This document shows, piece after piece, positions 2,201-20,350 of a DNA stretch of 64,000 bases. How positions within the stretch are numbered: position 1 is the first letter of the stretch; each line of letters starts with the position of its first letter. Both the position numbers and the translations under genes were made by a program. Where the stretch lies: assembly GCA_016182555.1 (NCBI GenBank), contig JACPGJ010000002.1, forward strand, positions 48,040 through 112,039, in the 5' to 3' direction. Below the pieces are notes generated by a model, which was not told where the DNA came from, did not search any database, and saw nothing but the letters and a program-made list of their open reading frames with translations. This stretch comes from Candidatus Kerfeldbacteria bacterium. Lineage in GTDB: Bacteria > Patescibacteriota > Patescibacteriia > UBA9570 > XYC2-FULL-38-9.

Positions 2201-2686
2201 TTATTTCATGGATTCAAGATATGTTTGAATCGTTTGTATATACCTTGGAAATAGTTTCACGCTATTTTGCAGAGCAGCATAAAATTGCATGCTGTTGAGG
2301 TCGTCATATTCGTGAACAAGAATATTTCTTGTTCCAATGCAGGGTTTCGTTGCTTCAGCGAGTTCATGGTCAATGACATTCATTTTTACCAATATGTCAA
2401 AAGAATCTGCATAGCTCGGTGGCGTTTTTTCTCCGGCAGCACGAATAATATGCAAATTGATATCAATACATCGATTAATCACCCGCTCAATCCATCTTTC
2501 CGCAACAGCACTTTTTATATCGTCGTTCATTATGGCTTCATACGAAGATTCTTGGAGTAATTTGTGAATCCGTTCTAGGTCTTCAAGAATGTAGGCGCAC
2601 TTCTGTTCAATAAGCTGCGTGTTCAAATTGGAGGAGTTTTGTTTTGACATATTCATGCGTCGCTTTAAATAATGGTTCAGCATCAA
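2201..2686 (-). CDS. hepT: HepT-like HEPN toxin (DUF86 family)
   Basis: 161 aa with the C-terminal R-x4-H-x-Y motif (RNILVHEYDDL) typical of HepT/DUF86 HEPN RNases. Overlaps the downstream end of the nucleotidyltransferase gene, as in MntA-HepT pairs. Confidence 0.7.
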   Translation of the reverse strand: MMLNHYLKRRMNMSKQNSSNLNTQLIEQKCAYILEDLERIHKLLQESSYEAIMNDDIKSAVAERWIERVINRCIDINLHIIRAAGEKTPPSYADSFDILVKMNVIDHELAEATKPCIGTRNILVHEYDDLNSMQFYAALQNSVKLFPRYIQTIQTYLESMK

Positions 2687-3044
2687 AATATTTCATGAGT
2701 AAACGAATATATTGTTTTTCATCATCGGTTTCAGTGCCAAAGAGTTTGATCCCTTCTGTGGCAATCAGGTAGCCAAGCAGTGGTGGTGCAGTGACCAAGT
2801 TCACACAATCAAATACACTCTCTGAAAGTCCGAGAATATTTTCTATTTTATCATCAAACCCTTGTAAGCTAAAGAATGTTCCACGCGGCATATCACTGCC
2901 ATCATGGCGAAGATAGGCAAGGTCAACATCGCTGTGTTCATTTGCGTCGCCACGCGCATGAGAACCAAACAAATACAACAATTTGAGGTCAAATTCTTTT
3001 GCAACCTCTGCCAGTTGTATTCTTTGTTTTTCAGTAATTTTCAT
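2607..3044 (-). CDS. mntA: MntA-like minimal nucleotidyltransferase antitoxin
   Basis: Motif LFGSHARGDANEHSDVDLAYL (GS-x9-DxD) of the Pol-beta/minimal NTase fold. The start was moved to the internal MKITEKQ methionine. The conserved upstream element lies just 5' of this start. Confidence 0.7.
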   Translation of the reverse strand: MKITEKQRIQLAEVAKEFDLKLLYLFGSHARGDANEHSDVDLAYLRHDGSDMPRGTFFSLQGFDDKIENILGLSESVFDCVNLVTAPPLLGYLIATEGIKLFGTETDDEKQYIRLLMKYFDAEPLFKATHEYVKTKLLQFEHAAY

Positions 3045-3052
3045 ATAGTACC

Positions 3053-3091
3053 TTATCAACATACCACACGAAACCCCTATTGACAAGAATC
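3053..3091. promoter_or_regulatory. Conserved TA-operon upstream element, copy 2
   Basis: ttatcaacataccacacgaaacccctattgacaagaatc, matching copies 1 and 3. Confidence 0.5.
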
Positions 3092-3809
3092 CCACGCATT
3101 GGCCATTTGATTAGGTTGTGTTATATTTCTCTTGGAATGGACACTCCTTGTGAGTCGTTTTTTTATGCAAATATATCAAACCCAAACTCACATCATCAAC
3201 CTATTACCAAAGAGGATCCCAATAGAAAAAATGAACTTTTGCATCGCTTCACAGGAGTAACGCCTAATAATATCCTATTTTCCGTTCAAATAAAAGAAGA
3301 TAAAAAAACGAATGAAAAACGGCTTATCTCTTGTTTTAGTGCTGAAAAATAAAAAGGCTTCCCGCCAGTTTGTGGTGTATAAACCACGGCCGAAAGTCTT
3401 TTCACATACTAGTATATAACACTCATATTTTTCGTCAAACTACTGATGCGGTGGTCTATTACCCAACGTGTGGAGTGGATGTGAGTCCGTCGTCCGGGTT
3501 TCCGAATAGCCGTATGATTTATGCCGAACAAGAAGCTGCGTGTGCTGAAGCGTTCAAGCGCCATCATTTCTTCCCGGCACTCTCGTTTTCCGCCGCTCCA
3601 ACTCGTTACCGTCCAACTTGATTTCACTAAAACAATTTTTCGGTAATCAATTTTTCTACTCGTATTGCTGTTGCTAAAGCCTGTTCTGCATCTGTCCACG
3701 TAAATTCAGGAAATTCTCCTGGATAACGCGTTGTGAAATAAAAATCCGTTTGCCGTTCCGTCACGATGACGGAATATGGATTGTGCATTCAATTCATCAT
3801 CTTCTGCTT

Positions 3810-3890
3810 TCAATAGCCATTCACGCACCGCAAAATGAGTAAATCAATATCGCTGTGTACGGATGGGCTGCCCCAAAATAGGTGAAGCAT
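3810..3890 (-). pseudogene. Nucleotidyltransferase (MntA-like) gene fragment
   Basis: The minus-strand ATG at 3890 translates to MLHLFWGSPSVHSDIDLLILRCVNGY then a stop. It retains the LFGS...HSD[IV]DL NTase signature seen in the intact MntA at 2607-3044. No full-length ORF remains. Confidence 0.4.
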
Positions 3891-3896
3891 ATATTT

Positions 3897-4131
3897 TTAT
3901 AACGCATCTTCCATCGATCCAAAAACGGTTAATCCAGGAATTTTACGAAAATCTTTCTTATTTTTTGTGATTAACGGTATATCCAAAATAAGCGCCGTTG
4001 CGGCAATCAGTAGGTCTGGTAGTTTTGTTTTGCGTGTTCTCCCAAGCATTGCTGCTCGTTCTGCAATAAGCGAATCCACAGAGATAATAGTGGTATAGGA
4101 AAGCCATTTTTTAATTGCCGCTATTTCTTTT
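3897..4131 (-). pseudogene. 5'-truncated PIN (VapC) gene remnant
   Basis: The translation ...KEIAAIKKWLSYTTIISVDSLIAERAAMLGRT...LIAATALILDIPLITKNKKDFRKIP aligns to the C-terminal ~75 residues of the VapC at 191-577. The N-terminal catalytic region and a proper start are missing. Confidence 0.55.
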
Positions 4132-4281
4132 TAAGATACCGCCCATTTTTTTCCATGCTTCTCCGGCTGCGCTTACGTGTTTTTTACTTTCTTGTAGTTC
4201 GATTTTTGCAATATTCAAACGTAGAAGCGTGAGCTCTTTTTCAATATGTTGAATGTGTGTGGTGAGTTGTTGTGTGGTCAT
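4111..4281 (-). CDS. Short VapB-like antitoxin homolog (56 aa) of the decayed TA module
   Basis: ATG at 4281, stop at 4111 (MTTQQLTTHIQHIEKELTLLRLNIAKIELQESKK...). Resembles the N-terminal two-thirds of the 561-812 product. Below the 60-aa cutoff of the ORF track. Confidence 0.45.
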   Translation of the reverse strand: MTTQQLTTHIQHIEKELTLLRLNIAKIELQESKKHVSAAGEAWKKMGGILKRNSGN

Positions 4282-4337
4282 AATATATTATTTACCCTTA
4301 TTTTAGCCATGAAATGGCCGTGGAAGGAGAATCCACT

Positions 4338-4393
4338 TTATCAACATACCACACGCCACCCCTATTGACAAGAATCAAAAAGCGTGCTAATAT
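4338..4393 (+). promoter_or_regulatory. Conserved TA upstream element, copy 3, carrying a canonical sigma70-type promoter (TTGACA-N17-TAATAT) on the + strand
   Basis: TTGACA at 4365-4370, 17-bp spacer, TAATAT at 4388-4393. The same -35/spacer/-10 block recurs at 20351-20379 upstream of the 20406 gene. Confidence 0.5.
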
Positions 4394-4646
4394 GTTCGGT
4401 TCTTTACAATCGAGTTCGCTATTGAAGTGTTTGAGGGAGCTAGGACCCCCAAGAGCATATACACACCCAAGTACGTAAGTAAAAAGGGCATATTGAAAGA
4501 AATCTTTCCACCATTCGTGACTCTACCGCTTATGCAAAGCGTCGCCGAAAGGCACGATGCGCACAAACGGTTAGTGAAGAATGATGGATCCTAGCAGATT
4601 TCCGATGATATGCCTTTTTTACTGCCTTGTATGGTCGTTGGCTCCC

Positions 4647-4671
4647 TGTCATGGTGAGCCTGTCGAACCAT
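4647..4671. repeat. Direct repeat tgtcatggtgagcctgtcgaaccat (copy 1), hairpin-forming
   Basis: Second copy at 4770-4794. Contains the inverted repeat TCATGGT...ACCATGA. Lies at the low-GC/high-GC junction. Confidence 0.5.
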
Positions 4672-4769
4672 AAAAGGTAGCAGTACATTTACAACACATT
4701 AGGTTTGAATAGAAGTATTTTTTCCGAGTCAGAGAGAATGAGATTATTTTGTCATGCCGACTGCCCACT

Positions 4770-4794
4770 TGTCATGGTGAGCCTGTCGAACCAT
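4770..4794. repeat. Direct repeat tgtcatggtgagcctgtcgaaccat (copy 2)
   Basis: Identical 25-mer ~125 bp downstream of copy 1. Immediately precedes the GC-rich segment. Confidence 0.5.
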
Positions 4795-4974
4795 GAGCAC
4801 AACAAATGATTTTACTCTCTCTGGCTTGGAATTATCTACGTCGGAGAACCCCGGGGTCACCCGAAGGTCGAAAGACCAGAAGGAGGCCGCGTGGTCTCTC
4901 CGGGGAGTGTCTTTGTTGTCCGCAACCCATGGCGTCGCGACGTGTCTTACGTGCGGCGCCACTTTGGAGGTTCT

Positions 4975-5856
4975 ATGAATCGGTTTTTCGTCCTCGCCAC
5001 CGCGCTGGTGGCCGTGATGTTTTCGTCGACGGCCGTCGCGACGGCCGTACCTTCCAATCTTCTTGGTGAGGTGCAGAGGTCTGCACTCACCAAGGTCTGG
5101 GAGGTTGGACCCGGCTCCCTGCCGCCAGAGGGTGCCGAGTGCCAACCGGGAGAAATCCCGGTGGTGCGAGGCACCGCCGACGAGATCCCGGGCGGCGACA
5201 CCGCCCAGGTGCAGCTAGATTCGCGGCGGCTGATGGCCGTCGCTCCCGCCGGTTGGGACGGCTCCTGGGGGTGGATCGCCGGGACGACGACGTCCGGCGA
5301 CAGCGCCGGCGTAGTGGGATGTGCGCCGCGGGGCGCCTTCCCAGCCGCCACGGCGGCGCCCTCGGCCGCCGCCCCCCAGTCACCATACCCGGCCATGCCC
5401 GGCCTTGAGCTCCCCAATGGGGTGAGCCTGAATGCTGAGCTGGACCCCGAGCAGGTTGCGACACTGACGTCGCAGCTGCTCTGCCTCCAGGCGGGGCGGG
5501 GTAACGACTGCCTCGGCGCGTACGCCGGGGGGTCCAACCTGGGGAAGTTACTGGAGAACGGCGCCCCGTTCTCCCTCAGGATGCCGGGGCTCGACCTCGT
5601 CGTCCGCCCCGTGGCCGGCAAACGGAGGGCCGCCCCCGTCGAAGAGGGGAACGGAGAGGCCACCCGCAGGACCAGGTGGTTCTGCGGAGACCACCCGGTG
5701 GTCTGCCTGGCGGCGACCACGATCGTCGTGGTGGGCGGAGTCGCGCTCACCTCGGTGGTCATGGGAAACCCCGTCGTCGATATCGGCGGCGGGAGTGCCG
5801 GTGGTAGCGCCTCCGCAGGCGCCACCGCTGGGTTTACGGTGATGCGCTTTCGGTAG
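4975..5856 (+). CDS. Secreted/membrane-anchored hypothetical protein encoded in the GC-rich island
   Basis: Internal start MNRFFVLATALVAVMFSSTAVATA is signal-peptide-like. Ala/Gly/Pro-rich with a C-terminal hydrophobic stretch. The opposite-strand ORFs in this region look like GC-driven artefacts. Confidence 0.4.
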   Translation: MNRFFVLATALVAVMFSSTAVATAVPSNLLGEVQRSALTKVWEVGPGSLPPEGAECQPGEIPVVRGTADEIPGGDTAQVQLDSRRLMAVAPAGWDGSWGWIAGTTTSGDSAGVVGCAPRGAFPAATAAPSAAAPQSPYPAMPGLELPNGVSLNAELDPEQVATLTSQLLCLQAGRGNDCLGAYAGGSNLGKLLENGAPFSLRMPGLDLVVRPVAGKRRAAPVEEGNGEATRRTRWFCGDHPVVCLAATTIVVVGGVALTSVVMGNPVVDIGGGSAGGSASAGATAGFTVMRFR

Positions 5857-6316
5857 GCGCGCCACCAACTTCGACCGTCGCGTGAGGGTCAGCATCGGCT
5901 GAACCCGAACGCGCATCGCTGCTCTCCGCGGCGGCCGACTTCGAATTCAAACTTGTCGTGTTTCGGGAGGGACGCAACGACGCTGTTCATTCGCTGCGTC
6001 TCTCCCCCTTCTTTCCTTTCTCGGAATCATTTCAGAGAAAGAAAAGTGGGAAAACATTTCTCACGTGCACTTTACAAATTTTTTCACTCTTTATTCAACT
6101 CAAGCCAGGAGTATTCGGATGATCACACAGGAAGACCATAGATGATTCGAGTAATCCTGGCTTGTAGATGCGGCGCCAGGAGGTCCGGGGGGTATGCCCA
6201 CGCTGAAAAGCGCGAAGTGTGCCCTCCAGTGGGGCCTCCCGAGGATCGTTGTTAAACCGAGAGTACGGCCGCCACTGTTCCAATCATGGACAATGGGCGG
6301 CCGTAGAGGAGTCAAA

Positions 6317-7672
6317 ATGAAAAAATGTTTTTGCTGGCTCGCCATCGCAATGATGGTGATGGTCAGCACCACTGCATGCCGCATTCGCGGCGGCAGTGTT
6401 TACGATGACTCAGGGCGGGAGACAGCGGATTCCGCCCTGGATGGAGACAACGACGGCGTCCCCTCGGGCGCCGGTGACTGCGACGACAACGACGCGTCGG
6501 TTTATCCCGGCGCGACCGAGCTGTGCGACGGCGTCGACAACAACTGCGACGGCGAGGTCGACGAGGGGTGTTCGGCTGAAACGCCGACCCCCGAAGCAGA
6601 AACCCCGACCCCGGAACCGACGCCCCCCCTTGACGGGGATGGCGACGGCTACTCCGAGGTCGGTGGCGACTGCGACGACACCAGCTCGGCCGTCCATCCG
6701 GGCGCGGTCGAGGGCTGCGACAGCTTCGACAGCGACTGCGATGGCGCGGTAGATGAGGGGTGTGAGGAGGAGAATCCCACACCCGACGATACGCCGGAGC
6801 CGACCGAAACCCCCGAGCCAGACGACCTGGACGGAGACGGCTACACCGAGGTCGGTGGCGACTGCGATGACACTGATGCGACGGTCTACCCGGGGGCAGA
6901 AGAGCTGTGCAATGATGCAACGGATTCGGACTGTGACGGTAATTCGTCTGAGTCAGAATCTGGATGCGTCGTGTACAGCGATGACGCGGACGGAGATGGG
7001 TATTGTGAGAATTCGCCGTGTGTCGTTTCGACGATGCCGGCGGGTGACTGCGATGACACCGACGCCCGCACTTATCCCGGGGCCGCGGAGACCTGCGACG
7101 GCCTGGACAACGATTGCGATGGGGATCGCGACGACATCGCCGAAGGAACGGGTAGCCTCTACTACCAGGACTCCGACGGCGATGGGTATGGAACTGACTC
7201 TGAGGTTATTTCGGCCTGCAGCCGTCCCGCTGGCTATGCGGTTAGCGACGACGACTGCAACGACGGCAACGCGTCAATCCACCCGGGTGCCACCGAGACC
7301 TGCAACAACGTGGACGACGATTGCGACGGCGCCGTGGAAGACGACACCGTCTGCAACCCGGACTGCGCCGCCACCGCCTTCTGGTGGGGCGCAGATTTCA
7401 ACCTCGTGACCTGGGCGAGCGAGGGTCAGCACCTGATTTCCAATCAGGATGACCCGGACTCGTCCAATACGGTCGAGTCGTCGACCCCCTGGACGTACCA
7501 GGGGCAACTCAACATCTGCGCCGGCGCGACCAGCTCGGCCGACGAGGTTATGGCTGCCGTAAACATCGGCAGCAACACCTGCGTCGCCTGGGACACGGCG
7601 AACGCATATGACGACGATGGGGACGGTTTCTGCGTCCCTATCAAAAAGGCTGAGATCGATCACACTCCGTGA
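6317..7672 (+). CDS. Lipoprotein with tandem MopE-type putative metal-binding Cys/Asp-rich repeats
   Basis: Start MKKCFCWLAIAMMVMVSTTAC with a lipobox-like TAC. At least 7 repeats of DGDGY...GGDCDD-x5-PGA-x-E-x-CDG-x-DNDCDG-xx-DEGC, the 'putative metal-binding motif' repeat described for MopE and many myxobacterial proteins. Very high GC. Confidence 0.6.
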   Translation: MKKCFCWLAIAMMVMVSTTACRIRGGSVYDDSGRETADSALDGDNDGVPSGAGDCDDNDASVYPGATELCDGVDNNCDGEVDEGCSAETPTPEAETPTPEPTPPLDGDGDGYSEVGGDCDDTSSAVHPGAVEGCDSFDSDCDGAVDEGCEEENPTPDDTPEPTETPEPDDLDGDGYTEVGGDCDDTDATVYPGAEELCNDATDSDCDGNSSESESGCVVYSDDADGDGYCENSPCVVSTMPAGDCDDTDARTYPGAAETCDGLDNDCDGDRDDIAEGTGSLYYQDSDGDGYGTDSEVISACSRPAGYAVSDDDCNDGNASIHPGATETCNNVDDDCDGAVEDDTVCNPDCAATAFWWGADFNLVTWASEGQHLISNQDDPDSSNTVESSTPWTYQGQLNICAGATSSADEVMAAVNIGSNTCVAWDTANAYDDDGDGFCVPIKKAEIDHTP

Positions 7673-7684
7673 TTTGATCTCCTC

Positions 7685-7710
7685 TGCGCGGTTCACCACT
7701 GCCGCGCGGA
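7685..7710. repeat. GC-rich hairpin ctgcgcggttcaccactgccgcgcgg (copy 1), with the shared flank recurring at 10235-10330
   Basis: The 32-nt stretch ctctgcgcggttcaccactgccgcgcggaagt at 7682-7713 is identical to 10235-10266. Both are followed by cgctcctt...tcttcttttttttt. Confidence 0.5.
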
Positions 7711-8167
7711 AGTTAACACAAGTGGAGGTTCCCGGAGCGCCGCTGCGAAAAGCGATCGCGAGCCGGTGGAGGAGGGAACTGACGTACGGCCGCAAGGCCA
7801 CGAGACCCAAGCCGCGCAAGCGGAACGAAGAGGACCCATGTCCTCCAATCGTCGAGTGCAACACGCGCTCCTTGGGTCTTCTTTTTTTTATTCAAATTTT
7901 TCTATAAATACTTGACGAAAGCAAGGTATACAAGTACAGTGCTCGTAGAATATTGTTTTTTATGTTAAAATATAGACATGATCAATAAATACACCTATCG
8001 ACTATTTAGAGTTCCCACCTTTAAACGGGGCATGGCCAGCTTGATTGATATTACCGGCAAGTTGAACGAAATTCGATTTGATAAAAGTGGCTCTGAAGCT
8101 GACTATAAGGCTTTATCGAGTGACTGGAAAGCCGTGGGGGAAGATTTACAGAATGCTATGAATACTT

Positions 8168-8561
8168 ATGGAAGAAAAAAATCAGCTACAAGACCAAAGT
8201 AAATCACCGACAACAAATAATACGCATCAACTTATTGCTGTTCAGCATTCTTTTTCAGGTCCCATTCCACCGCCAGATGTGTTGAATGATTACGAACGTA
8301 TTGAAAAAGGATTGGCGAGTCGTATTGTAAATATGGCCGAGAAGCAGTCAGGCCATAGGCAAAACATTGAAAGCAGATATATTCGTTCAGCAAATCTTCG
8401 CTCAATTCGCTGGGTTGTTTGTAGGGGCATATTTAGTCATTCAGGGAAACAATGTCATGGGGATATTATTTTCTTCCGGGCCATTGGCAACAATTATTCT
8501 CGCTTTTTTAAATGAATCTAAAAAGGATAGAGCGGTAAAGCAGGAAGAGGAAGTCGAGTAA
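8168..8561 (+). pseudogene. DUF2335-like small membrane protein, apparently frameshifted
   Basis: Frame A (8168-8515) carries SGPIPPPDVLNDYERIEKGLASRIVNMAEKQSGHRQ. Overlapping frame B (8367-8561) carries the hydrophobic tail ...FAGLFVGAYLVIQGNNVMGILFSSGPLATIILAFLNE. Together they resemble one phage-associated DUF2335-type protein split by a +/-1 shift. The family assignment is from memory. Confidence 0.3.
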
Positions 8562-8604
8562 GTCTATGTAATATAAGGATTGGAGTGTTCCAGTTCGGTA
8601 TAAG

Positions 8605-8623
8605 ATCCCGCAAGGGATTTTTT
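8605..8623 (+). terminator. Intrinsic terminator (ATCCC-GCAA-GGGAT + T6)
   Basis: 5-bp stem with a GNRA tetraloop followed by a T-run, downstream of the DUF2335-like ORFs. Confidence 0.5.
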
Positions 8624-8660
8624 ACTTTATGGAAAGCGGTTTTTTTCCAAAATTTGTACA

Positions 8661-8733
8661 TTGACCCAGTACACAACTTTGATATACTAAACACAGTTGG
8701 ACACTACTCACCGTTGCGGAGCAGTGTTTTTTT
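8661..8733 (+). promoter_or_regulatory. Promoter (TTGACC-N16-TATACT) plus 5' leader hairpin/T7 attenuator-like structure upstream of Bro-N gene 1
   Basis: -35 at 8661-8666 and -10 at 8683-8688, then CACTACTC-N9-GAGCAGTG followed by TTTTTTT at 8703-8733. The ~95-bp module is ~90% identical to 10323-10401. Confidence 0.5.
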
Positions 8734-8765
8734 ACTTGATTCAAAAATTAAATTACAATAAAAGT

Positions 8766-9647
8766 ATGAGCAAACCACAAGACTCTAAATCAATCGTTTT
8801 ATTTGAAGACGTACCCGTCCGTCGTATTTGGGTAGAGCAGGAAGAAAAATGGTATTTTGCTATCGTGGATATCATTAAAATACTCACAGATAGCAAAGAT
8901 CCGCAAGGTTATATTAAAGATATGCGCCGTCGTGATTCTGTATTATCTCAAGGGTGGGGGCAAATTGCCACCCCCCTTTTGGTCGAAACCAGAGGAGGTA
9001 AGCAAAAGGTTAATTGTGCCAATGTTCAAGGGGTTTTGCGTATTATTCAAAGTATCCCATCCAAAAAAGCTGAACCGTTTAAACAGTGGTTAGCTAAGGT
9101 GGGCTATGAGCGGCTCCAAGAAACGGTTGACCCAGAACGGGCGTTAAACCGTGCACGCAAGAATTGGAAAGAATTAGGGCGATCTGAAAAGTGGATTGAG
9201 CAACGAATGCGCGGTCAAGAAACCCGTAATAAACTCACGGACTACTGGCAGACCCACGGGGTAAACGAACAGCCTGAATATGCCCAGTTAACAAATATTA
9301 TTCATAAGGAATGGAGTGGGTTGAGTGTTGGTGAGCATAAGAAACTCAAAAAGTTGAAACAGGAAAATTTACGAGATAATATGACCGAAGCTGAACTGAT
9401 CTTTACCGCTCTTGCCGAATTTTCTACTCGTCAGATTGCAAACCATAATCGATCAGAAGGTTTTGTTGAAAATGCTCAATCGGCTAAGCGAGGCGGAAAA
9501 ATTTCTGCTCATGCTCGTCAACAGCTTGAACAAGAGTCAGGAGAAAAAGTAGTCAGTGCTGAAAATTTTTTACCACCTATATCATTAAGCTCAGCGTTAA
9601 AAAAATCAAAAAACGCAAAGAAGCTGAACTCTCGAAACCGAAAATGA
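8766..9647 (+). CDS. Bro-N/KilA-N-like DNA-binding domain protein (phage antirepressor-like), paralog 1
   Basis: N-terminal ...VRRIWVEQEEKWYFAIVDIIKILTDS...QGVLRIIQSIPSKKAEPFKQWLAKVGYERLQE is a Bro-N-like fold signature. Start set at the internal MSKPQDSK. About 60% identical to the 10435-11286 product. Confidence 0.5.
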   Translation: MSKPQDSKSIVLFEDVPVRRIWVEQEEKWYFAIVDIIKILTDSKDPQGYIKDMRRRDSVLSQGWGQIATPLLVETRGGKQKVNCANVQGVLRIIQSIPSKKAEPFKQWLAKVGYERLQETVDPERALNRARKNWKELGRSEKWIEQRMRGQETRNKLTDYWQTHGVNEQPEYAQLTNIIHKEWSGLSVGEHKKLKKLKQENLRDNMTEAELIFTALAEFSTRQIANHNRSEGFVENAQSAKRGGKISAHARQQLEQESGEKVVSAENFLPPISLSSALKKSKNAKKLNSRNRK

Positions 9648-9673
9648 CTATATTTCATTTACCGATATCCTGA

Positions 9674-9705
9674 TTTTAATGTTATGGAATTCCATAACAT
9701 TAAAA
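9674..9705. repeat. 32-bp perfect palindrome TTTTAATGTTATGGAATTCCATAACATTAAAA
   Basis: Exact reverse-complement symmetry about the central GAATTC. Lies in the 9648-9864 intergenic gap between Bro-N gene 1 and the small wHTH gene. Confidence 0.7.
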
Positions 9706-9864
9706 ATGAAGCCGGTTCTCATGGTTTCATTTGAGATCATGGGCCAATAATTCAGGAATGAAAAAATTTGATAATCATGAATGACGATTTCTCAACCCCA
9801 GATAATGCAAATGTAATAAAATGAAGAGTTTCAAAAGTAATTTACAGAAGACCAATGAATACCA

Positions 9865-10059
9865 TTGGGATTGAATGTACGACAATTCAAAGCAGTGGTA
9901 TACGTTAAAAAAAAGAGAAAAATTACTAATAAAGAATATCAGCAATTATGCTTTGTATCCCGAGAAACTGCTTCGCGTGAGTTAGCGCATCTTACAGATA
10001 AAAATATTTTTGTACATTCGGGAAGTAAGGGTGCTGGTTCGTATTTTACATTAAAATAA
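9865..10059 (+). CDS. Small winged-helix DNA-binding protein
   Basis: 64 aa. ...ITNKEYQQLCFVSRETASRELAHLTDKNIFVHSGSKGAGSYFTL resembles the C-terminal wHTH found in Fic/RecG-like regulator families. Confidence 0.4.
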   Translation: MGLNVRQFKAVVYVKKKRKITNKEYQQLCFVSRETASRELAHLTDKNIFVHSGSKGAGSYFTLK

Positions 10060-10237
10060 TTGCGTCAAATAAATAAAATAAGCCCTGTGTAGCTAGGCCC
10101 TTGCGGGCGAACGGCATGAAGCCGACTTTCACATACACAGGACTTACTTATACGTATACAATAGAGATAGAGCAAATATTCAGGAATATCAAACTTACTT
10201 TTTAAAACTGAAAAATAGGCTTTCGTAACAATGGCCT

Positions 10238-10263
10238 CTGCGCGGTTCACCACTGCCGCGCGG
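10238..10263. repeat. GC-rich hairpin ctgcgcggttcaccactgccgcgcgg (copy 2)
   Basis: Identical to 7685-7710. A local GC-rich patch in otherwise AT-rich DNA. Confidence 0.5.
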
Positions 10264-10328
10264 AAGTCCTCCAATCGCCCCCGTGCACACGCGCTCCTTC
10301 TCGTCTTCTTTTTTTTCAAAATTTGTAC

Positions 10329-10401
10329 ATTGACGCTTCATACAAGTTTGATATACTAAACACAGTTGGACACTACTCACCTTTGCGGAGCAGTGTTTTT
10401 T
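10329..10401 (+). promoter_or_regulatory. Promoter (TTGACG-N16-TATACT) plus leader hairpin/T7 upstream of Bro-N gene 2
   Basis: Same module as 8661-8733. Hairpin CACTACTC...GAGCAGTG at 10370-10394, then T7. Confidence 0.5.
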
Positions 10402-10434
10402 TATGTGAAAATGAATTACTATTAAGAAAGGACT

Positions 10435-11286
10435 ATGCCAACACAAACCGTGCGTACACCAGAAACAACACAAATTGTCTTATTCAAAGGCAAGCAAATC
10501 CGGAAAACCATCCATAATAACGAATGGTGGTTTTCGGTGGTCGATGTAGTAGAAGCATTGACTGACAGCGTGAATGCTAATGATTATTGGTATAAAATGA
10601 AGGTTCGAGTACAGGATGAGGAAAAAATTGAACTATCGACAATTTGTCGACAGTTGAAATTGGTAGCTCCAGATGGAAAAATGCGTGAAACCGACTGTGC
10701 AAATACCGAAGGCATTTTCCGCATCATTCAATCTATTCCTTCTCCAAAAGCCGAGCCATTTAAGCGCTGGTTGGCGAAAGTCGGCTATGAGCGTGTACAG
10801 GAAATTGAAAATCCGGAGTTAGCGACGAAACGTACACGTATGCTCTACAAACTGAAAGGGTATAGTGATGGGTGGATAGAAAAACGAATGCGAGGTATTG
10901 CGATTCGTGAAGAGCTGACCGATGAATGGGATAAACGCGGGGCAAAAGAAGAACAAGATTATGAAATTTTGACTGCTGAAATTTCCAAAGCGACGTTTGG
11001 CGTTACACCGAAACAATACAAAAAATTGAAGGGTATCAAGCGAGAGAATTTACGCGATCACATGGAAGAATTAGAACTGATTTTTAATATGCTTGGAGAA
11101 AAAGCAACAACAGAAATTCACCAGAGTGAAAATTCGCAAGGTATGACGAAATTGAAAGCAGATGCTAAGGCCGGTGGAGATATTGCTGGTGGCGCGAGGA
11201 AAAAATTAGAAAAACGGCTTGGTCGTTCAATCGTTTCAAAAAAGAATTTTCTCAAAAACACCGAAGAGCGCAAGAAATTGAAATAA
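10435..11286 (+). CDS. Bro-N/KilA-N-like DNA-binding domain protein, paralog 2
   Basis: ...IRKTIHNNEWWFSVVDVVEALTDS...EGIFRIIQSIPSPKAEPFKRWLAKVGYERVQE, the same architecture as 8766-9647. Confidence 0.5.
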   Translation: MPTQTVRTPETTQIVLFKGKQIRKTIHNNEWWFSVVDVVEALTDSVNANDYWYKMKVRVQDEEKIELSTICRQLKLVAPDGKMRETDCANTEGIFRIIQSIPSPKAEPFKRWLAKVGYERVQEIENPELATKRTRMLYKLKGYSDGWIEKRMRGIAIREELTDEWDKRGAKEEQDYEILTAEISKATFGVTPKQYKKLKGIKRENLRDHMEELELIFNMLGEKATTEIHQSENSQGMTKLKADAKAGGDIAGGARKKLEKRLGRSIVSKKNFLKNTEERKKLK

Positions 11287-11408
11287 TGTAAATGTTTTGC
11301 ATCTGCAAAGCACCTTATAATATAGTTGAGTATCGTGGTTCAGACAGATACAGTGCCTGAATACCGCGCTCTATTTGGTATATTGAAAAGAAGAAGGGGA
11401 AATGCGCG

Positions 11409-11840
11409 ATGAAAAAGTGGGTAAGTCTTTATGTTCTGGGTTTGCTGTGCATGCTCAGTGGTTGCTCGCTTGGTGGAAATACCGAAGCCAGCAGTCGCGA
11501 GACGGCGGTGGAATCAACCCAGACTACCGCCATGACCGAAAACCCAGACTGCTCCGCAGACTGGGTGTGGGTGAAGGTTGACTTCACTCGAGTGCAATGG
11601 GCATGTGAAGGCGAGGATTGTGTGTATCCCACGACCGGCACCAGCGGTATGTGGGTTCCGACGCCATGGTCAGTCGGCACTGAAAAGGTCTCTCCCTGGG
11701 CTGGAGCGCTCACCTCATTCAGCAGCCTCTCAAGCGCGCTGACCTGGAGCAACTTATGCGTTGGATGGAATTCCAGTTCATTCTGGATTCCTTCCGGCAG
11801 CAATGGCGGCTGTGCACATCTGGAGAAAGTGGCGGAGTAG
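11409..11840 (+). CDS. Lipoprotein, hypothetical
   Basis: MKKWVSLYVLGLLCMLSGC signal plus lipobox. Trp/Cys-rich mature part. Moderately GC-enriched. Confidence 0.5.
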   Translation: MKKWVSLYVLGLLCMLSGCSLGGNTEASSRETAVESTQTTAMTENPDCSADWVWVKVDFTRVQWACEGEDCVYPTTGTSGMWVPTPWSVGTEKVSPWAGALTSFSSLSSALTWSNLCVGWNSSSFWIPSGSNGGCAHLEKVAE

Positions 11841-11984
11841 TCGCCACGGGCTCCGGATTATCGCGCGCAGGTAAAAAATTTCACGTCCGTCGGCTTGAAT
11901 AGAGCGGCAGGCGTGGTTTTTTCTGAATGGAGATAGTTATTTTTTACAAAAAACGCTATAATTGGCTGGCGATAAATAACGATT

Positions 11985-13424
11985 ATGCCGCAAGCACCAC
12001 AGCTTCACCAGCCATCTATTTTTGCACCATTGCGTGCGACAGCCCGCACTCGAGTGTTAGCTCTTTTTTTTGCGGCCACGTGGATCGTCGGCGTTGCAAG
12101 TTTGCTTTTTATCCCCGGCGTTCCGCATTGGTTTTTTTATGCGTTTATCGCTTTCACCGCCGCCAGCCTCTTTTTTGCGCAGTACCCACACCTCGCGCTC
12201 TATGGCATGGCCGCTACGTATCCCTTTCTGTACTGGCAAATTATTTTTGGGCCTATTAACGCACCGGTGGTTGACGTTATCGGCGTTTTTGCGGTTGCCG
12301 GTTTGGCAGTGCGTCTCCTCATTTTCGCTATGAGCGACAAAGCAGCATTTCGTGCCACGCATTGGTGGGGAGGTGGATTGTTTTTGGCTTGGGTTGCAGT
12401 TGGTATCATTTCCGCAACACAAACAATAGTATTACCGGTGACCAGCAGCCTTTATTACGTGTTGCGCATGATGAGTTTTTTCTACATTGCGTATATTTTT
12501 TTCCCAATGAACACCATGAGGAATTCGAAGACACTCCATCATATATTGCGTATTCTTTTGGGGGTGGGAGTGATTGTGGCGATCTATGGTCTATACAGTT
12601 TTGGTGTAGCGCTCGCCAACCCAAATATTCCGGACCGTGCTATTCCTGTAGTGATCTTCGGTTTTGCGCCACTTGGCATAAATCATAACTTGATTGCCGA
12701 TATGATGGTGGCGATTATTCCTATTGGGTTGTATTTATTGAGCCAAGAAAAAAACCCGGTTATACAACGCTTTTTTCTGCTTTCCATTTCGTTGATGGCT
12801 ATGGTCAATATGCTTACATTTTCTCGTACTGGCTGGTTAGCGTTTGTATTAGAAATGGTTTTGCTTGTGGTGTTCCAATACCGTCACCATATAAAACGTT
12901 TCTTCAAATATATGGTGTTGACCAGTCTCATTGCTTTTCCCATTATTGCGTATATGCTCTATTTCACCTTCACCAGCGATATCGTTCGCAGTTCCAACCA
13001 AAGCCGCTTATTTTTGAATGATATTGCACTGCAAATGTTTGAAGACCACCCGTTCATTGGCAATGGGCCAAACGCGTTTGTGTACCAGTTGTCATACAAC
13101 AAATTGTATACCTTAGAATATGGTGAACCGATTGATGCGCATGGGTTTATTCAAAAAGTAGGCAGTGAATTGGGTATTCTTGGTTTGCTTATTTATAATG
13201 CGCTGGTGATTTATGCCATATTCACTGCATATAGAGCTTATAGTCGTTACGCAAAAAATGCGCAAGAATCATATTTGCTCTTTTGCTTATTCCTCCTCGT
13301 GTGTGGTAGTATTTTTTCTCAGTTATTTCAAACGTCATATTATTCACCAAAAATGTGGTTTCCGATTGGTGTAGCGCTTGCCGCCGCATCACTGGCGAAG
13401 AAAAAAGAATCGTTGAGTATATGA
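11985..13424 (+). CDS. O-antigen ligase/polymerase-like membrane protein (Wzy_C family)
   Basis: Polytopic. Carries the LTFSRTGWLAFVLE and EPIDAHGFIQKVGSELGILGLL loop motifs characteristic of WaaL/Wzy-type proteins. The exact start is uncertain. Confidence 0.6.
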   Translation: MPQAPQLHQPSIFAPLRATARTRVLALFFAATWIVGVASLLFIPGVPHWFFYAFIAFTAASLFFAQYPHLALYGMAATYPFLYWQIIFGPINAPVVDVIGVFAVAGLAVRLLIFAMSDKAAFRATHWWGGGLFLAWVAVGIISATQTIVLPVTSSLYYVLRMMSFFYIAYIFFPMNTMRNSKTLHHILRILLGVGVIVAIYGLYSFGVALANPNIPDRAIPVVIFGFAPLGINHNLIADMMVAIIPIGLYLLSQEKNPVIQRFFLLSISLMAMVNMLTFSRTGWLAFVLEMVLLVVFQYRHHIKRFFKYMVLTSLIAFPIIAYMLYFTFTSDIVRSSNQSRLFLNDIALQMFEDHPFIGNGPNAFVYQLSYNKLYTLEYGEPIDAHGFIQKVGSELGILGLLIYNALVIYAIFTAYRAYSRYAKNAQESYLLFCLFLLVCGSIFSQLFQTSYYSPKMWFPIGVALAAASLAKKKESLSI

Positions 13425-14494
13425 AACAGATTGTCCATATCATTGATAGTCTCCGCTGCGATGGTGCTCAGCGTATGTTGACTGAATTGTTAACGCGTTT
13501 GGATTCGCAGCAATTTGAAGCACGGGTGATTGCGCTCACCGGTTCAGGTAACGATTATATCTACCAACAACTGCAGGCTGCGGGAATAGAGGTAGAAATT
13601 ATTCAAGAACGGGGAGTGGGGATGCGATCATTTTTTCAACTGATGCGGTTATTGAAACGCTGGCGGCCAGATATTGTGCATACACATTTATTTTTTTCAG
13701 ATGTGTGGGGTGCGGCCGCATGCAAGCTGGCTGGAGTGCCAGTATTGGTGTCAACTGAACATAATATCAACAGAGATTTTAACCGAACAAAATTAGTGTT
13801 CAAGCGAAAAGCATACAGAAAATGTGATGCGATTATAGCGATTTCACAGGCGGTGAAAGAATATATCGTCGAGCTTGATTCAAAGAACCAATGCAAGGTT
13901 CGATTGATTTATAATGGCATCGATCTTTCCCGTTTTTCTGCAAAGAAAACGCCAACAATGCTACACCAACCGCCCGTCATTTCTATTATTGGTCGTTTAG
14001 AAGAGCAGAAAGGACATGCCCAGGCGATAGCTGCGTTTGCGCAGGTGAAAGGAGCGGTTGATTTACATATTATTGGGCAGGGGAGTTTACAGCTTGCCTT
14101 AGAACAACAGGTACAGCAAATTGGGTTGAAAAACCGTGTGCAATTTTTGGGGCAACGAATAGATATTGAACAGGTGTATGCTGATTCGGATATTATTTTT
14201 ATCCCATCCCGTTTTGAAGGGTTCGGATTAGTCGCGGTTGAAGCCATGGCCGCTGGGAAACCCATTGTGGCTTCACGTGTTGATGGTTTGGCAGAAATTT
14301 TGCAACACGAAAAAACAGCGTTGTTGGTTGACATGCAACAACCCAAAACAGTGGCCCAGCAGATAGATCGTTTACTGGCTGAGCCGACATTGCGCGCCCA
14401 CCTTGGTGCAACAGCGAAACAAGATGCGCAACGTTTTGATATTGCAAAAACGGTGGAACAATACCAGCAGCTCTACAAAGAATTAACCACATGA
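13421..14494 (+). CDS. Glycosyltransferase family 4
   Basis: C-terminal EGFGLVAVEAMAAGKPIVASRVDG (the E-x7-E GT4 signature region). Start at the internal MKQIVHI. Confidence 0.8.
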   Translation: MKQIVHIIDSLRCDGAQRMLTELLTRLDSQQFEARVIALTGSGNDYIYQQLQAAGIEVEIIQERGVGMRSFFQLMRLLKRWRPDIVHTHLFFSDVWGAAACKLAGVPVLVSTEHNINRDFNRTKLVFKRKAYRKCDAIIAISQAVKEYIVELDSKNQCKVRLIYNGIDLSRFSAKKTPTMLHQPPVISIIGRLEEQKGHAQAIAAFAQVKGAVDLHIIGQGSLQLALEQQVQQIGLKNRVQFLGQRIDIEQVYADSDIIFIPSRFEGFGLVAVEAMAAGKPIVASRVDGLAEILQHEKTALLVDMQQPKTVAQQIDRLLAEPTLRAHLGATAKQDAQRFDIAKTVEQYQQLYKELTT

Positions 14495-14498
14495 GTGT

Positions 14499-15164
14499 AT
14501 GAAATTGACTGCACGGTTTTCTACGTATTTTCGTGATAAAAAATGGCAATTGTTTGAACAACATTTTTCGCTTCATCCGCAAACCACCATACTCGATATT
14601 GGTTATCAAAATAAGGAATACCAAGCGGCAGATAATTATTTAGAAAAACACTATCCGTTTCCAGCACAGATTACCGCACTCGGTATTGATCCACCGGAGG
14701 AGTTTCAACAACGGTATCCGCAAGTGAAAACGGTGCATTACGACGGCCGCGTTTTTCCATTCGCTGACAACACATTTGATATCGCCTGGTCCAACGCTAC
14801 TATTGAGCATGTGGGTCCATTCGACCGTCAACTCGTATTTATAAAAGAGATGGCACGCACGTCACGTAATCTTTTTTTCACCACTCCGAACCGTTGGTTT
14901 CCCATTGAAGTACACACCCGTTTTCCTTTTATTCACTGGTTGCCACGTCACTGGTTTAATGGCATAGTGAAGTTGTTCGGCAAAGATTGGGCCGCAGGCG
15001 ACTATATGTTTTTATTAAGCAGCCGGCAGCTGAAACGTTTACTCGCCGCTTCCGGTATTGAGCGCTATACGCTTATTCGTCAACGCTTCTGCGGTTTTAC
15101 TCTTCAGTTTATTGTTATTGTGCATCACTCATCAGCAACACATGAAGATACTCCAAATCAATAA
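14499..15164 (+). CDS. Class I SAM-dependent methyltransferase (Methyltransf_11-like)
   Basis: ILDIGYQ (motif I) and FPFADNTFDIAWSNATIEHV (motif II/post II). Confidence 0.6.
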   Translation: MKLTARFSTYFRDKKWQLFEQHFSLHPQTTILDIGYQNKEYQAADNYLEKHYPFPAQITALGIDPPEEFQQRYPQVKTVHYDGRVFPFADNTFDIAWSNATIEHVGPFDRQLVFIKEMARTSRNLFFTTPNRWFPIEVHTRFPFIHWLPRHWFNGIVKLFGKDWAAGDYMFLLSSRQLKRLLAASGIERYTLIRQRFCGFTLQFIVIVHHSSATHEDTPNQ

Positions 15165-16338
15165 ATTTTTTTACCGCCGTGCTGGTGCAGAGAATTATTT
15201 TTTAGATGTGAGCCGTGCGCTGGAACAGGCTGGTCACGAGATGGCGTTTTTTTCCATGCACCATCCGCAGAATGTACCGAGCCCGTACGCAAAATATTTT
15301 ATTGACGAAATTGATTTTGGGAGCGGTGCGCAGCGGTCAATACAAAAAGCCGCCCATTTTATTTATTCTACAGAAGCCGCAAAAAAATTAGAGCAGCTGA
15401 TTACCGATCACCGCCCAGACATTGCCCATGTGCATAATATTGCTCATCAGCTGACGCCATCAGTACTGGATACCCTTCGGAAACACCATATTCCTGTCGT
15501 GATGACGCTGCACGATTATCAAGTGCTTTGCCCGAATTACAAACTATTTACCCAAGGCAGCCCGTGCGAACGCTGTAAAGTGCATCAATATTGGAATGCC
15601 ATCAAATTCAACTGCGTGCAAGATGCGAAATTGCCCTCTGCACTTTCTGCAGTAGAAATGGCGGTGCAGAATGTGTTCAAAAAAACGTATGCTAAAGGAG
15701 TGAATATATTTATTGCACCATCACAGTTTATGTATACCAAAATGAATGAGTGGGGCTGGCCAGAAAGCCAACTGCACTACTTGCCAAACTTCATTGATCG
15801 CATTCGTGATACACGCATCAAAAAAAAGAATCAATTTGCCTATATTGGACGACTCACCAAAGAGAAGGGGGTGCACCTTGTGTTGGAAGCTGCTCGTCGC
15901 ATGCAAGATACCACATTTATTTTTGCCGGTTCTGGGGAAGAGGAATCAAACATGAAAGCAACGATTCAAAAAGAAGGTTTGAAAAATTGTGTCATGCTGG
16001 GTTTCCAACCTGAACACAAAATTGATACACTCATTCAAGAATCACAAGCGGTATTGGTACCGTCATTGTGGTGGGAGAACGCACCCTTGTCTGTATATGA
16101 AGCATTGGCGTTAGGCACGCCCGTTATTGCATCCAACCGTGGTGGCTTACCAGAATTGATAAAAAAAGGAAAAAATGGTATAATATTTAATCCAGAAAAA
16201 TCAAACGCCCTGGCTGAAGCCATTCAGCAAATGCTCGCTATGCCACCTTTACAAATTCCTAAAAATACGTATACTGTAGGGTCTCATGTCGAGGCACTCA
16301 CCGCACTTTATGAAAAAACTATTCGCCAAAAAAAATAG
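15142..16338 (+). CDS. Glycosyltransferase family 4
   Basis: MKILQINKFFYRRAGAE N-terminus. C-terminal SLWWENAPLSVYEALALGTPVIASNRGGLPE. Confidence 0.75.
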   Translation: MKILQINKFFYRRAGAENYFLDVSRALEQAGHEMAFFSMHHPQNVPSPYAKYFIDEIDFGSGAQRSIQKAAHFIYSTEAAKKLEQLITDHRPDIAHVHNIAHQLTPSVLDTLRKHHIPVVMTLHDYQVLCPNYKLFTQGSPCERCKVHQYWNAIKFNCVQDAKLPSALSAVEMAVQNVFKKTYAKGVNIFIAPSQFMYTKMNEWGWPESQLHYLPNFIDRIRDTRIKKKNQFAYIGRLTKEKGVHLVLEAARRMQDTTFIFAGSGEEESNMKATIQKEGLKNCVMLGFQPEHKIDTLIQESQAVLVPSLWWENAPLSVYEALALGTPVIASNRGGLPELIKKGKNGIIFNPEKSNALAEAIQQMLAMPPLQIPKNTYTVGSHVEALTALYEKTIRQKK

Positions 16339-18412: not shown

Positions 18413-18418
18413 AATTGC

Positions 18419-20275
18419 ATGCCTGAAGAACGCATTCCATTTCATCATAAGCATCTGCCTAGTCTGACTAAATGGACGCGTGCAGCATGTTGGAAATTGA
18501 GTCATTTGTATTTCCCGATTGTTATTCACTACATGACAGATAAATATACAGGTCGTTTGCACCATTTTGTGGTGGATATGATTTATGTGGTATTTACGGT
18601 TATTTTTGCGGCAGCAAATATTGGCCTAGCGATGTGGTTTTATTTGTATTTTACTCCAGCGGATATTGATGTGCATGCTGTTACCACAGCACATATTGTT
18701 AGTGGGAACGACACGGTCGTTTCCGTCGTGTATAAAAATGATAGCCGCGCTATTGATGATGTCGCGATTGAAGTATTTTTACCAGATGGGTTTATTCCGG
18801 CTGCGAGCACGAATGGCAACAATACCGGACAGCCGACCTATGTGAGCCTGGGGCATCTAGAACCATACGCGCAAGGATTGATTGAAATTCCAGGAGCGAT
18901 GTTTGGAGATGTTGATCATACCTATGCTGTTCGTGCGATGACGTCTTATACCTCCTTCAAACAACGCCATGAACAATTTACTACCCAACATTTTACTGTT
19001 GAAGGTACGTCGTTTGATGTGCGTGTGCAATTTCCTGATACCGTAACGTACGATACCGCTATTGAAGGCACCGTGCACTATACCAATAATAGTCATTATG
19101 ATTTAGATACGGCTACATTTACTTTGAATTTTCCAACCAATTTTGCGATAGATTCTATTGACTATAATACGACGAATGGAGCATTTGATGCAGCGCATCC
19201 GGAATTGACTATTACTGGTATTGCCGCGAATGAAGAAGGAGATTTGGTTGTGCATGGGCGGTTTATCAGAACCGATATTGCCCTAAGCGGAGACCAACAA
19301 AGTGAATTTTTGGTCAGCGTGCGTATCACTGTTGGTGGTGAAACGAGTGCTGTATCGAACCAAGTGGTGTTTGCCTCACCAGACGAACATACCGGTATTC
19401 GAGTAATCACCCCGCGATTAAGCGCTTCGATAACCGGAACGAGTATTGCCCGATTTGGGGATACAATTAGTGCGACAATCGTTGTAAATAATATTGGCGA
19501 TAGCCCCATTGAACAGATTGCTCTTTTTGGCGATATGCATGGGTCACCATTGCTTACCCATTCAGCAACCGTTCACTTAAACGATAATGGGGTGAATAGT
19601 CAGGTGACTGGCGCACAAACTGCTGGAGCAAACCGTATTCCGTTTCCAGTGCTTAGCCAATTGCCAGTGGGAGAAAGCCGAACCTTTACTATCAGTATTC
19701 CAACCAGTGCAGTAGATGCACAACAAGTCTCATCAAGTTTGTCCGTTTTTGGCAGCGGCTATTCACCCGAATTAGATGTGCAGATTGGTTTGCCGAGTAT
19801 GGCTATTGCGACCAAATATGATTCACAGGTCGACCTGTCATCTGCACTCTATTATTATGGGCCAAATGGGGAAGAGCTGGGATATGGCCCGTATCCACCA
19901 CAAGCTTGGCAGCCAACGGCGATGCGCGTCGTATTGAAAGTAGAAAATGTGAATAACCCATTGCGGAATGTGGTGATTCGAGCAACACTTCCTGGCCAAG
20001 TAGAATGGACAAATTTGTATAGCGTTACGGCTGGTTCAGAATTGCTTTGGAACTCCGCCACACGCACCATAGAATGGCATATTGATACCCTGGATCCACA
20101 AAGTAGCGGTTACGGCGCGCAATTTGAGGTCGTTCTTACGCCAAATCATTTGCAAATTGGGCTAACGCCTCACCTGGCTGACAATATACAACTCACGGCA
20201 ACGGACCAATATACTGGGCGTGTTATTAGTGCCCCGGGTGGTGCTGTGGTTTTGCCTGTGGCTGTTGTTCAATAA
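18419..20275 (+). CDS. Membrane-anchored repeat-domain surface protein (DUF11-like beta-sandwich repeats), hypothetical
   Basis: N-terminal TM helix (IYVVFTVIFAAANIGLAMWFYLYF), then Thr/Asn-rich repeated ~100-aa units. No catalytic motif. Confidence 0.4.
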   Translation: MPEERIPFHHKHLPSLTKWTRAACWKLSHLYFPIVIHYMTDKYTGRLHHFVVDMIYVVFTVIFAAANIGLAMWFYLYFTPADIDVHAVTTAHIVSGNDTVVSVVYKNDSRAIDDVAIEVFLPDGFIPAASTNGNNTGQPTYVSLGHLEPYAQGLIEIPGAMFGDVDHTYAVRAMTSYTSFKQRHEQFTTQHFTVEGTSFDVRVQFPDTVTYDTAIEGTVHYTNNSHYDLDTATFTLNFPTNFAIDSIDYNTTNGAFDAAHPELTITGIAANEEGDLVVHGRFIRTDIALSGDQQSEFLVSVRITVGGETSAVSNQVVFASPDEHTGIRVITPRLSASITGTSIARFGDTISATIVVNNIGDSPIEQIALFGDMHGSPLLTHSATVHLNDNGVNSQVTGAQTAGANRIPFPVLSQLPVGESRTFTISIPTSAVDAQQVSSSLSVFGSGYSPELDVQIGLPSMAIATKYDSQVDLSSALYYYGPNGEELGYGPYPPQAWQPTAMRVVLKVENVNNPLRNVVIRATLPGQVEWTNLYSVTAGSELLWNSATRTIEWHIDTLDPQSSGYGAQFEVVLTPNHLQIGLTPHLADNIQLTATDQYTGRVISAPGGAVVLPVAVVQ

Positions 20276-20350
20276 ATTTTCCTTACATTAGCAATTTTTT
20301 ATAGGACAAACTGGTCTTTTTTTTGTGGGTTCTTTGGCCCATTTTACCTA

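Follow-up and report, generated by a model that had tools for sequence, protein, structure and literature searches.

A two-copy promoter-leader repeat in front of two Bro-N genes in a Candidatus Kerfeldbacteria genome

Introduction

In 64 kb of DNA (hereafter, the window) from a 123.5-kb contig of a metagenome-assembled genome of Candidatus Kerfeldbacteria, a lineage of the candidate phyla radiation (CPR; Patescibacteria), two Bro-N genes are each preceded by nearly the same intergenic block, in which a promoter is followed at once by a stem-loop and a run of seven Us (U7). Several systems in phages and prophages combine similar parts. At the late promoters of phages lambda (PR'-tR') and 82, strong terminators lie early in the transcript, 100–200 nt downstream, in the company of an adjacent Q gene and a sigma-dependent pause site. 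The antirepressor operons of P1/P7 (c4), P4 (CI) and N15 (CA RNA) are kept off by premature termination in the leader, from which a small RNA is produced. At the IsrK locus of Gifsy-1, a leaky terminator is documented to yield two products, a short RNA and a read-through mRNA (PMC4825925).

The two copies of the block, R2 and R3, share with the lambda and phage 82 promoters a strong promoter and a terminator-like element early in the transcript before the genes, but neither the strong distant terminator nor the Q gene was found at R2 or R3. As in P1/P7, P4 and N15, Ant/Bro-type genes stand behind the leader element. Nevertheless, the leaders of those systems are longer and carry defined complementary sites, none of which was detected in the block by a duplex scan, and the two Bro-N proteins are at most candidate antirepressors. 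The likeness to the Gifsy-1 IsrK locus lies in a promoter with a hairpin and a U-run soon after it, in an accessory or prophage-type island downstream whose genes include one of antirepressor type, and in the need for partial read-through. However, the IsrK short form and its base-pairing in trans were demonstrated experimentally, whereas the RNA of the block is predicted from sequence and would be only ~35–39 nt long; the block also has no sequence similarity to IsrK and no AntQ-like gene. As short non-coding sequences repeated in the spacers of one genome, R2 and R3 further recall REP/BOX/MITE-like repeats, but they possess neither terminal inverted repeats nor a target-site duplication, and only two full copies were found.

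We conclude that the block is a real regulatory repeat, present in two copies, specific to its lineage and of a general kind already known. Our preferred interpretation, which we hold tentatively and at somewhat less than an even chance, is that two accessory genes each received a copy of one strong promoter, with a leaky terminator or stem-loop at the 5' end of its transcript.

Results

All genes, promoters, terminators and repeated elements described between 7681 and 11286 of the window lie on the plus strand. R2 (8640–8734) and R3 (10309–10403) are 91.6% identical over 95 nt, and 90% identical over 100 nt if the comparison is carried to 8739 and 10408, in agreement with an earlier note on this DNA that had put the identity at about 90% over 95 bp. 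Each copy consists, in order, of a T7 or T8 run with an A-tract, TTGACC or TTGACG, a 16-nt spacer, TGnTATACT, 13 nt, CACTACTC, nine nucleotides, GAGCAGTG and T7. In R2, the T7/A-tract (possibly UP-like) is followed by the -35 hexamer at 8661–8666, TG at 8680–8681 and the -10 hexamer at 8683–8688; the arms CACTACTC (8702–8709) and GAGCAGTG (8719–8726) enclose a 9-nt loop, and the resulting stem-loop (8702–8726, extendable from 8699) runs into U7 at 8727–8733. The corresponding parts of R3 are the -35 at 10330–10335, the -10 at 10352–10357, the arms at 10371–10378 and 10388–10395, again with a 9-nt loop, the stem-loop at 10371–10395 and U7 at 10396–10402. Both promoters (TTGACC/TTGACG-N16-TATACT) are TG-extended at the -10, score 10/12 with TG and are among the three best promoter-like sites in 4–14 kb. 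The pattern of stem-loop plus T7 has two matches in the window against none expected. A promoter, a 5' stem-loop and U7 thus stand ahead of both Bro-N genes as the earlier note had described, except that the hairpin core begins 13 nt past the -10, or 10 nt if GGA pairs with the Us, and not about 8 nt past it. Placing the start ~7 nt past the -10, we infer from this spacing that transcription begins near 8695 in R2 and 10364 in R3, and the hairpin would then start at about +5 (extended stem) to +8 (core).

The differences between R2 and R3 are unevenly distributed. Seven of the eight fall in the first 38 nt, five of them in the promoter spacer, and the eighth is in the loop, so that the -10, the initial transcribed region, the stems and U7 contain none. 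From the extended -10 through U7 there is one difference in 57 nt, as compared to seven in 38 nt upstream (Fisher's test, p = 0.006, for a split chosen post hoc), and the transcribed part of the block is 98% identical between the copies. The homology ends exactly at U7; just beyond, identity drops to 45%, the random level.

The genes behind the two blocks are Bro-N paralogue 1 (Bro-N1, 8766–9647) and paralogue 2 (Bro-N2, 10435–11286), at the positions given earlier. Both were identified as Bro-N by Pfam, as PDC-S13 by PADLOC and as phrog_15286 by PHROG. Both are intact, full-length open reading frames (ORFs) that match the PDC-S13 profile (PDLC04920) from end to end (Bro-N1, E = 1.1e-112 over residues 7–285; Bro-N2, E = 5.4e-119 over residues 11–280). 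The two proteins are 43% identical to each other, while relatives in other genomes and phyla reach 84–86% for Bro-N2 and 70–74% for Bro-N1. Because each has far closer relatives elsewhere than the other, the two genes appear to be separate acquisitions. PDC-S13 is a candidate defence gene only. Some sources call Bro-N homologues 'DNA-damage-inducible protein D' (DinD); we found no solved structure for a Bro-N protein, and no mention of PDC-S13 by name in the literature.

The block was not found in front of the homologous gene at any of 80 loci, the upstream regions being unrelated, and it is absent as well from two further loci (L087 and L088), of which L088 comes from another Kerfeldbacteria genome in the same sample series. 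L088 was considered as a possible relative of the block and rejected, as its upstream T7 belongs to the loop of a hairpin unrelated to that of the block and the aligned sequences are not homologous. Searches by blastn-short with the leader hairpin and with a GC-rich hairpin described below gave chance matches only among the 88 fetched loci, and no hit to either came from scanning viral contigs and JGI metagenomes with exact patterns; the further copies that the earlier note had suggested looking for thus did not appear. As the block is absent from homologous loci, although it is 91.6% identical before two separately acquired genes, it seems to be resident in this Kerfeldbacteria genome rather than to belong to the gene family. 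Members of the PDC-S13 family usually stand alone with their own short or leaderless promoter and without the block. Before the ATGs of homologues, strong -10-like hexamers were found in 18 of 64 cases at offsets of 4–10 nt, against ~0.7 per other offset, which suggests leaderless transcripts for about a quarter of them. We also observed that the Bro-N/'DinD-like'/PDC-S13 proteins are 65–86% identical across CPR, Gammaproteobacteria, Bacteroidota, Planctomycetota, Nitrospirota and others (L001–L080), a conservation unusually high for a mobile accessory gene, and that their genes are mostly solitary amid housekeeping genes.

The two Bro-N genes differ in what lies between U7 and the start codon. 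Downstream of U7 in R2 there is a second promoter-like site (8731–8759; TTTACT-N17-TACAAT), of which the -35 overlaps the U-run and the -10 ends 6 nt before the ATG of Bro-N1; it is of the leaderless type, and this position is the modal one of the strong -10-like hexamers in the homologues. Bro-N2 is preceded by a Shine-Dalgarno sequence, AAGAAAGGA, and no other recognisable promoter was found between U7 of R3 and this sequence or the ATG; read-through past U7 is therefore necessary if Bro-N2 is expressed. These observations bear on whether the block is a self-contained gene for a small hairpin RNA of ~35–39 nt, which, like IsrK, would act on the adjacent Bro-N/PDC-S13 gene, in cis or in trans. 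The homology that spans the T-run to the exact end of U7, the near-identity of the transcribed part and the separate -10 of Bro-N1 beyond U7 would all suit such a gene, and a leaky terminator giving a small RNA and a read-through mRNA beside an antirepressor-type gene has been documented (PMC4825925). Nevertheless, the hairpin is weak, Bro-N2 seems to depend on the block promoter, and neither copies elsewhere nor a comparable element at homologous loci were found. As candidate targets in trans, a duplex scan of the window returned self-antisense and chance-level matches of 10–11 nt only, and these were rejected. We consider a self-contained small-RNA gene unlikely.

The strength of the stem-loop was assessed by folding and by comparison with shuffled sequences. 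The stem has eight positions, one of them an A.C mismatch, and closes a loop of 9 nt; folding gave -4.9 kcal/mol for the core, or -8.9 kcal/mol when GGA pairs with the first Us. For the two copies, 48 and 61 of 200 shuffles folded equally well or better (z-scores, -0.4 to -0.6). In both copies U7 directly follows the stem, and this tract is itself ideal for termination, but the stable, GC-rich, uninterrupted stem with a loop of 3–8 nt that marks an intrinsic terminator is lacking. The terminator discriminant, computed with a formula after d'Aubenton-Carafa et al. 1990 and calibrated on E. coli rather than CPR bacteria, was d = -5.8 and -5.4, below the threshold of d > 0. Real terminators of the window reach -14 to -20 kcal/mol, and accepted sites score d = 11 to 36; sites at gene ends all score higher than the block, among them 24128–24151 (-17.2 kcal/mol, d = 36) and 11883–11916 (-14.8 kcal/mol, d = 8). 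A canonical intrinsic terminator also precedes R2, at 8602–8623 after a DUF2335 remnant (scored at 8606–8617; -17.1 kcal/mol with flanks, d = 11). The earlier note had counted an upstream terminator as part of the repeated module; it is present before R2, but no hairpin abuts the upstream T-run of R3.

The proposal made in that note was an efficient, constitutive promoter-proximal terminator that must be overridden by a Q/N/put-like factor, or else a condition-dependent attenuator. Phage late promoters with early terminators, such as lambda PR'-tR', are a known design; in both copies of the block a perfect U7 directly follows the stem, ~33–39 nt from the predicted start, and an arrangement common to both paralogues would permit their co-regulation. 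However, the hairpin does not have the stability claimed for it, its core being no better than shuffled sequence and weaker than the terminators above. A stem that begins at about +5 to +8 leaves no RNA ahead of it from which a competing antiterminator could fold, and no fold overlapping the 5' arm was found in either copy; the full leaders are no more structured than shuffles (z = +0.8 and +0.4) and have no stable alternative fold. No Q-, N- or NusG-type protein was detected with Pfam, NCBIfam and PHROG among the ORFs of 7.9–11.8 kb, or with Pfam among those of 0–4.3 and 24–41 kb. The window contains no prophage, and only one of 62 homologous loci has any hairpin with a T-run upstream, the feature being missing from the other 61. 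Searches of Rfam gave no hit anywhere in the window at gathering thresholds, and chance-level hits at E <= 10 in 7400–11500. With a weak stem, no factor gene found, no competing fold and no prophage, regulated antitermination is the least supported reading and in our view very unlikely; if there is an attenuator, only a weak and leaky one is plausible.

Two further functions would not require termination. Firstly, a stem-loop so close to the 5' end could shield the mRNA from 5'-end-dependent decay, with U7 being incidental or part of the -35/UP region of the next promoter. A start at about +5 for the extended stem and about +8 for its core, the overlap of the R2 U-run with TTTACT, and the abundance of T-runs in these AT-rich spacers are in keeping with a stabiliser. 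Nevertheless, a weak stem, a start site that is a prediction, and the preservation in both copies of a U7 exactly adjoining the stem make this role rather unlikely. Secondly, the inverted repeat CACTnCTC-N9-GAGnAGTG, kept in both copies at +8 to +32, could be a DNA operator just past the start, serving as a repressor site or roadblock for Bro-N itself or for an SOS-type regulator; Bro-N is, by its Pfam name, a family of DNA-binding domains, and some homologues carry the DinD name given above. The half-site centres are, however, 17 bp apart, which would be off-phase for a typical dimer, the motif has no further copies in the window, and the only regulator-like gene nearby is a fragment of 64 aa with a helix-turn-helix (HTH). 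An operator is therefore doubtful, with a slim chance at best.

The earlier note had described a third region of the same architecture in front of the first small ORF. This R1 (7882–7977) is a degenerate relative of the block: while the shared architecture applies to R2 and R3, including their T7/T8 runs and TTGACS-N16-TATACT promoters, R1 has T8 and TTGACG-N17-TACAGT and no hairpin. Its blastn comparison with R3 yields a single 16-nt match, TGTTTTTTATGTnAAAAT; in the alignment a 14-nt gap covers the 5' arm of the hairpin, and the best local fold has -2.8 kcal/mol. R1 is followed by an ORF of 74 aa (7978–8202; phrog_27385, unknown function) and by a DUF2335/phrog_3996 membrane protein gene (8168–8561) split by a frameshift into overlapping frames at 8168–8515 and 8367–8561. 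An ORF identical to the former is present in the independent Logan contig L085, and because the frameshift also recurs in the independent assembly, the latter is a true pseudogene rather than the product of a sequencing error. Between the Bro-N genes, the 64-aa winged-helix fragment (9865–10059), which has weak HTH matches only, is likely a gene remnant. Two structures were also seen here: a perfect 32-bp AT-rich palindrome at 9674–9705 (TTTTAATGTTATGGAA/TTCCATAACATTAAAA), 27 nt past the stop codon of Bro-N1 (-18.6 kcal/mol, z = -4.6, with no U-run after it), and a hairpin at 10079–10146, between the HTH fragment and the second GC-rich hairpin (-26.3 kcal/mol, z = -3.2), of which the sole Rfam hit was a chance-level rncO on the opposite strand.

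A GC-rich hairpin of 26 nt, previously said to bracket the unit at 7685–7710 and 10238–10263, does occur in two exact copies, although the first begins at 7684; it lies within an exact 33-nt repeat at 7681–7713, 9 nt past the stop codon of a MopE-repeat gene, and 10235–10267 (-23.8 kcal/mol, z = -3.5 for the latter). The homology continues, diverged, to the right of both copies with an indel of 127 nt: a GC-rich structured segment at 7714–7840 is present in the first copy only and, by the alignment, deleted from the second. In the first copy, a three-way-junction stem with U8 follows at 7802–7889 (-42.4 kcal/mol, z = -4.8, d = 21); in the second, 10268–10316 is a decayed remnant of the terminator arm at 7841–7889, with the 5' arm missing and no hairpin at its T8. 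The copy at 10235 is thus a decayed remnant of a ~210-nt GC-rich element at 7681–7890. The fold of 7675–7895, which covers this element, has -98.1 kcal/mol (z = -4.3); the element contains two GCAA tetraloop hairpins and the three-way junction before U8, and it has no Rfam match and no homologues. The stem at 7802–7889 with U8 probably serves the high-GC MopE-repeat gene as its intrinsic terminator, and the ~210-nt element is most simply its 3' untranslated region plus terminator. The three units (A, B and C) form a mosaic, A being like C on the left and B like C on the right. A reading of the 33-nt direct repeats as att sites was rejected, as the homology runs on rightward of both copies, and no integrase was found near them among the ORFs scanned. 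An integron-type cassette array was also rejected: the repeats are heterogeneous and promoter-bearing, and nothing attC- or intI-like was seen, although no dedicated attC model was run.

With its pseudogene, gene fragment and partly deleted copy of the GC-rich 3' element, 7.7–11.3 kb is a decaying mosaic. The block might accordingly be seen as a neutral relic, a recent tract of recombination or gene conversion in which hairpin and U7 have no function. Such a relic would fit a fold no better than chance and the loss of the hairpin from R1, and by our own arithmetic the chance that eight differences miss the 16 stem bases is ~0.23. Nevertheless, the differences spare the stretch from -10 to U7 (p = 0.006) and both downstream genes are intact, so that we regard this possibility, too, as unlikely.

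The surroundings do not resemble a phage. GC content is 38–48% over most of the window, the exception being a ~3-kb stretch at ~4890–7890, which has 58–70% GC as compared to ~43% for the CPR genome. Its genes encode one secreted protein with a signal peptide and one MopE-repeat lipoprotein (PF11617, E = 1.6e-55), the nearest relatives of which are at most 44% identical, across repeats; the stretch was probably acquired horizontally from a high-GC donor. An assembly chimera behind this stretch and the GC-rich hairpins was rejected. Independent Logan contigs (SRR12113422) match 3371–7710, 7684–8707 and 10671–23424 at 100%, stop exactly at the repeats and cross both GC/AT junctions; because they agree, the junctions, the DUF2335 frameshift and the repeats are real and not artefacts of one assembly. 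The left flank holds toxin-antitoxin cassettes (PIN at 191–577, HepT/MntA at 2201–3095 and a truncated PIN at 3897–4079). The right flank, from 11.9 kb, is taken up by a cluster of envelope-polysaccharide genes that includes Wzy, GT4 enzymes, an epimerase, UDP-glucose dehydrogenase and genes for sulfate activation. The earlier note had spoken of phage-like cassettes, a loose description: scans of the window detected no integrase and no phage structural gene, no antiterminator appeared among the ORFs scanned at 0–12 and 24–41 kb, blastn against 50,697 phage records gave no DNA match, nor did plasmid records, and no tRNA or tmRNA gene was found. PHROG matches were of the moron type only. The best reading is an island of toxin-antitoxin/defence type between toxin-antitoxin cassettes and the envelope-polysaccharide cluster, with PIN, HepT/MntA and PDC-S13 as its context of candidate defence genes.

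Other intergenic repeats were noticed in the window. A second promoter block (TTGTCA-N17-TGnTATGTT; 42–88 nt) lies on the minus strand at 811–902, 3050–3091 and 4285–4376, directly upstream of three toxin-antitoxin operons; the HepT/MntA operon is unrelated to the two PIN-type operons, yet over 42 nt its block is 93% identical to the third copy. The pattern of R2 and R3, one block before different genes, is seen here as well. A hairpin family with four intergenic copies (28250–28284 on the minus strand, 34433–34511, 36264–36342 and 43910–43988) has a 35-nt core, GAGAGCACGTATTTGCGAAGCAAAACGAAGCTCTC, identical in all; in the three folded copies the outer stems retain their self-complementarity despite differing in sequence (-38 to -51 kcal/mol, z = -6 to -9). 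The family matches neither Rfam nor viral contigs, and resembles a REP/MITE-like or structured-RNA element specific to this genome. The 25-nt sequence TGTCATGGTGAGCCTGTCGAACCAT is present as an exact direct repeat at 4647–4671 and 4770–4794, 123 nt apart, just left of the high-GC stretch.

Discussion

The preferred interpretation, in which a strong promoter is combined with a leaky terminator or stem-loop at the 5' end of the transcript, would work as follows. A T/A-rich upstream tract, TTGACS, a 16-nt spacer and TG-extended TATACT would form a strong sigma-70-type promoter, from which transcription would start near 8695 and 10364. The first ~32 nt of the RNA could then fold into a weak, interrupted stem-loop that runs directly into U7 and may act as a leaky, unregulated intrinsic terminator or pause. 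Some transcripts would end as an RNA of ~35–39 nt, and others would continue into the Bro-N gene, so that two accessory genes with a potential for harm would be expressed in a damped and co-ordinated way. The block itself may have spread by local recombination or gene conversion rather than by gene duplication.

Several points weigh against this interpretation. Both the start site and any termination are predicted from sequence, and the stem, being no stabler than shuffled sequence, may not work as RNA at all. Within the stem-loop, the two full copies differ by one substitution, in the loop, and show no compensatory change in the stem. The discriminant, calibrated on E. coli, may not suit CPR bacteria. 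The sharp end of the homology at U7 suits a self-contained small-RNA gene equally. It is attractive to speculate further that the block is a portable promoter-to-terminator mini-gene of ~95 bp for a hairpin RNA of ~35–39 nt, which this CPR lineage installs before newly acquired, potentially toxic PDC-S13/Bro-N genes; the RNA or the leaky terminator would then be an obligatory gate, and the RNA would resemble an antitoxin RNA or a leader-derived immunity RNA. We regard this extension as quite improbable.

As it stands, the general importance of a lineage-specific repeat with two copies and a weak hairpin is low. The regulatory signals of CPR/Patescibacteria are, however, almost unstudied, and if the preferred interpretation is true, the block would provide an example, in these bacteria, of a leaky terminator at the 5' end of a transcript from a sigma-70-type promoter. 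It would also illustrate how a resident promoter block is re-used before independently acquired accessory genes, and may represent a dosage control of PDC-S13, a widespread candidate defence gene.

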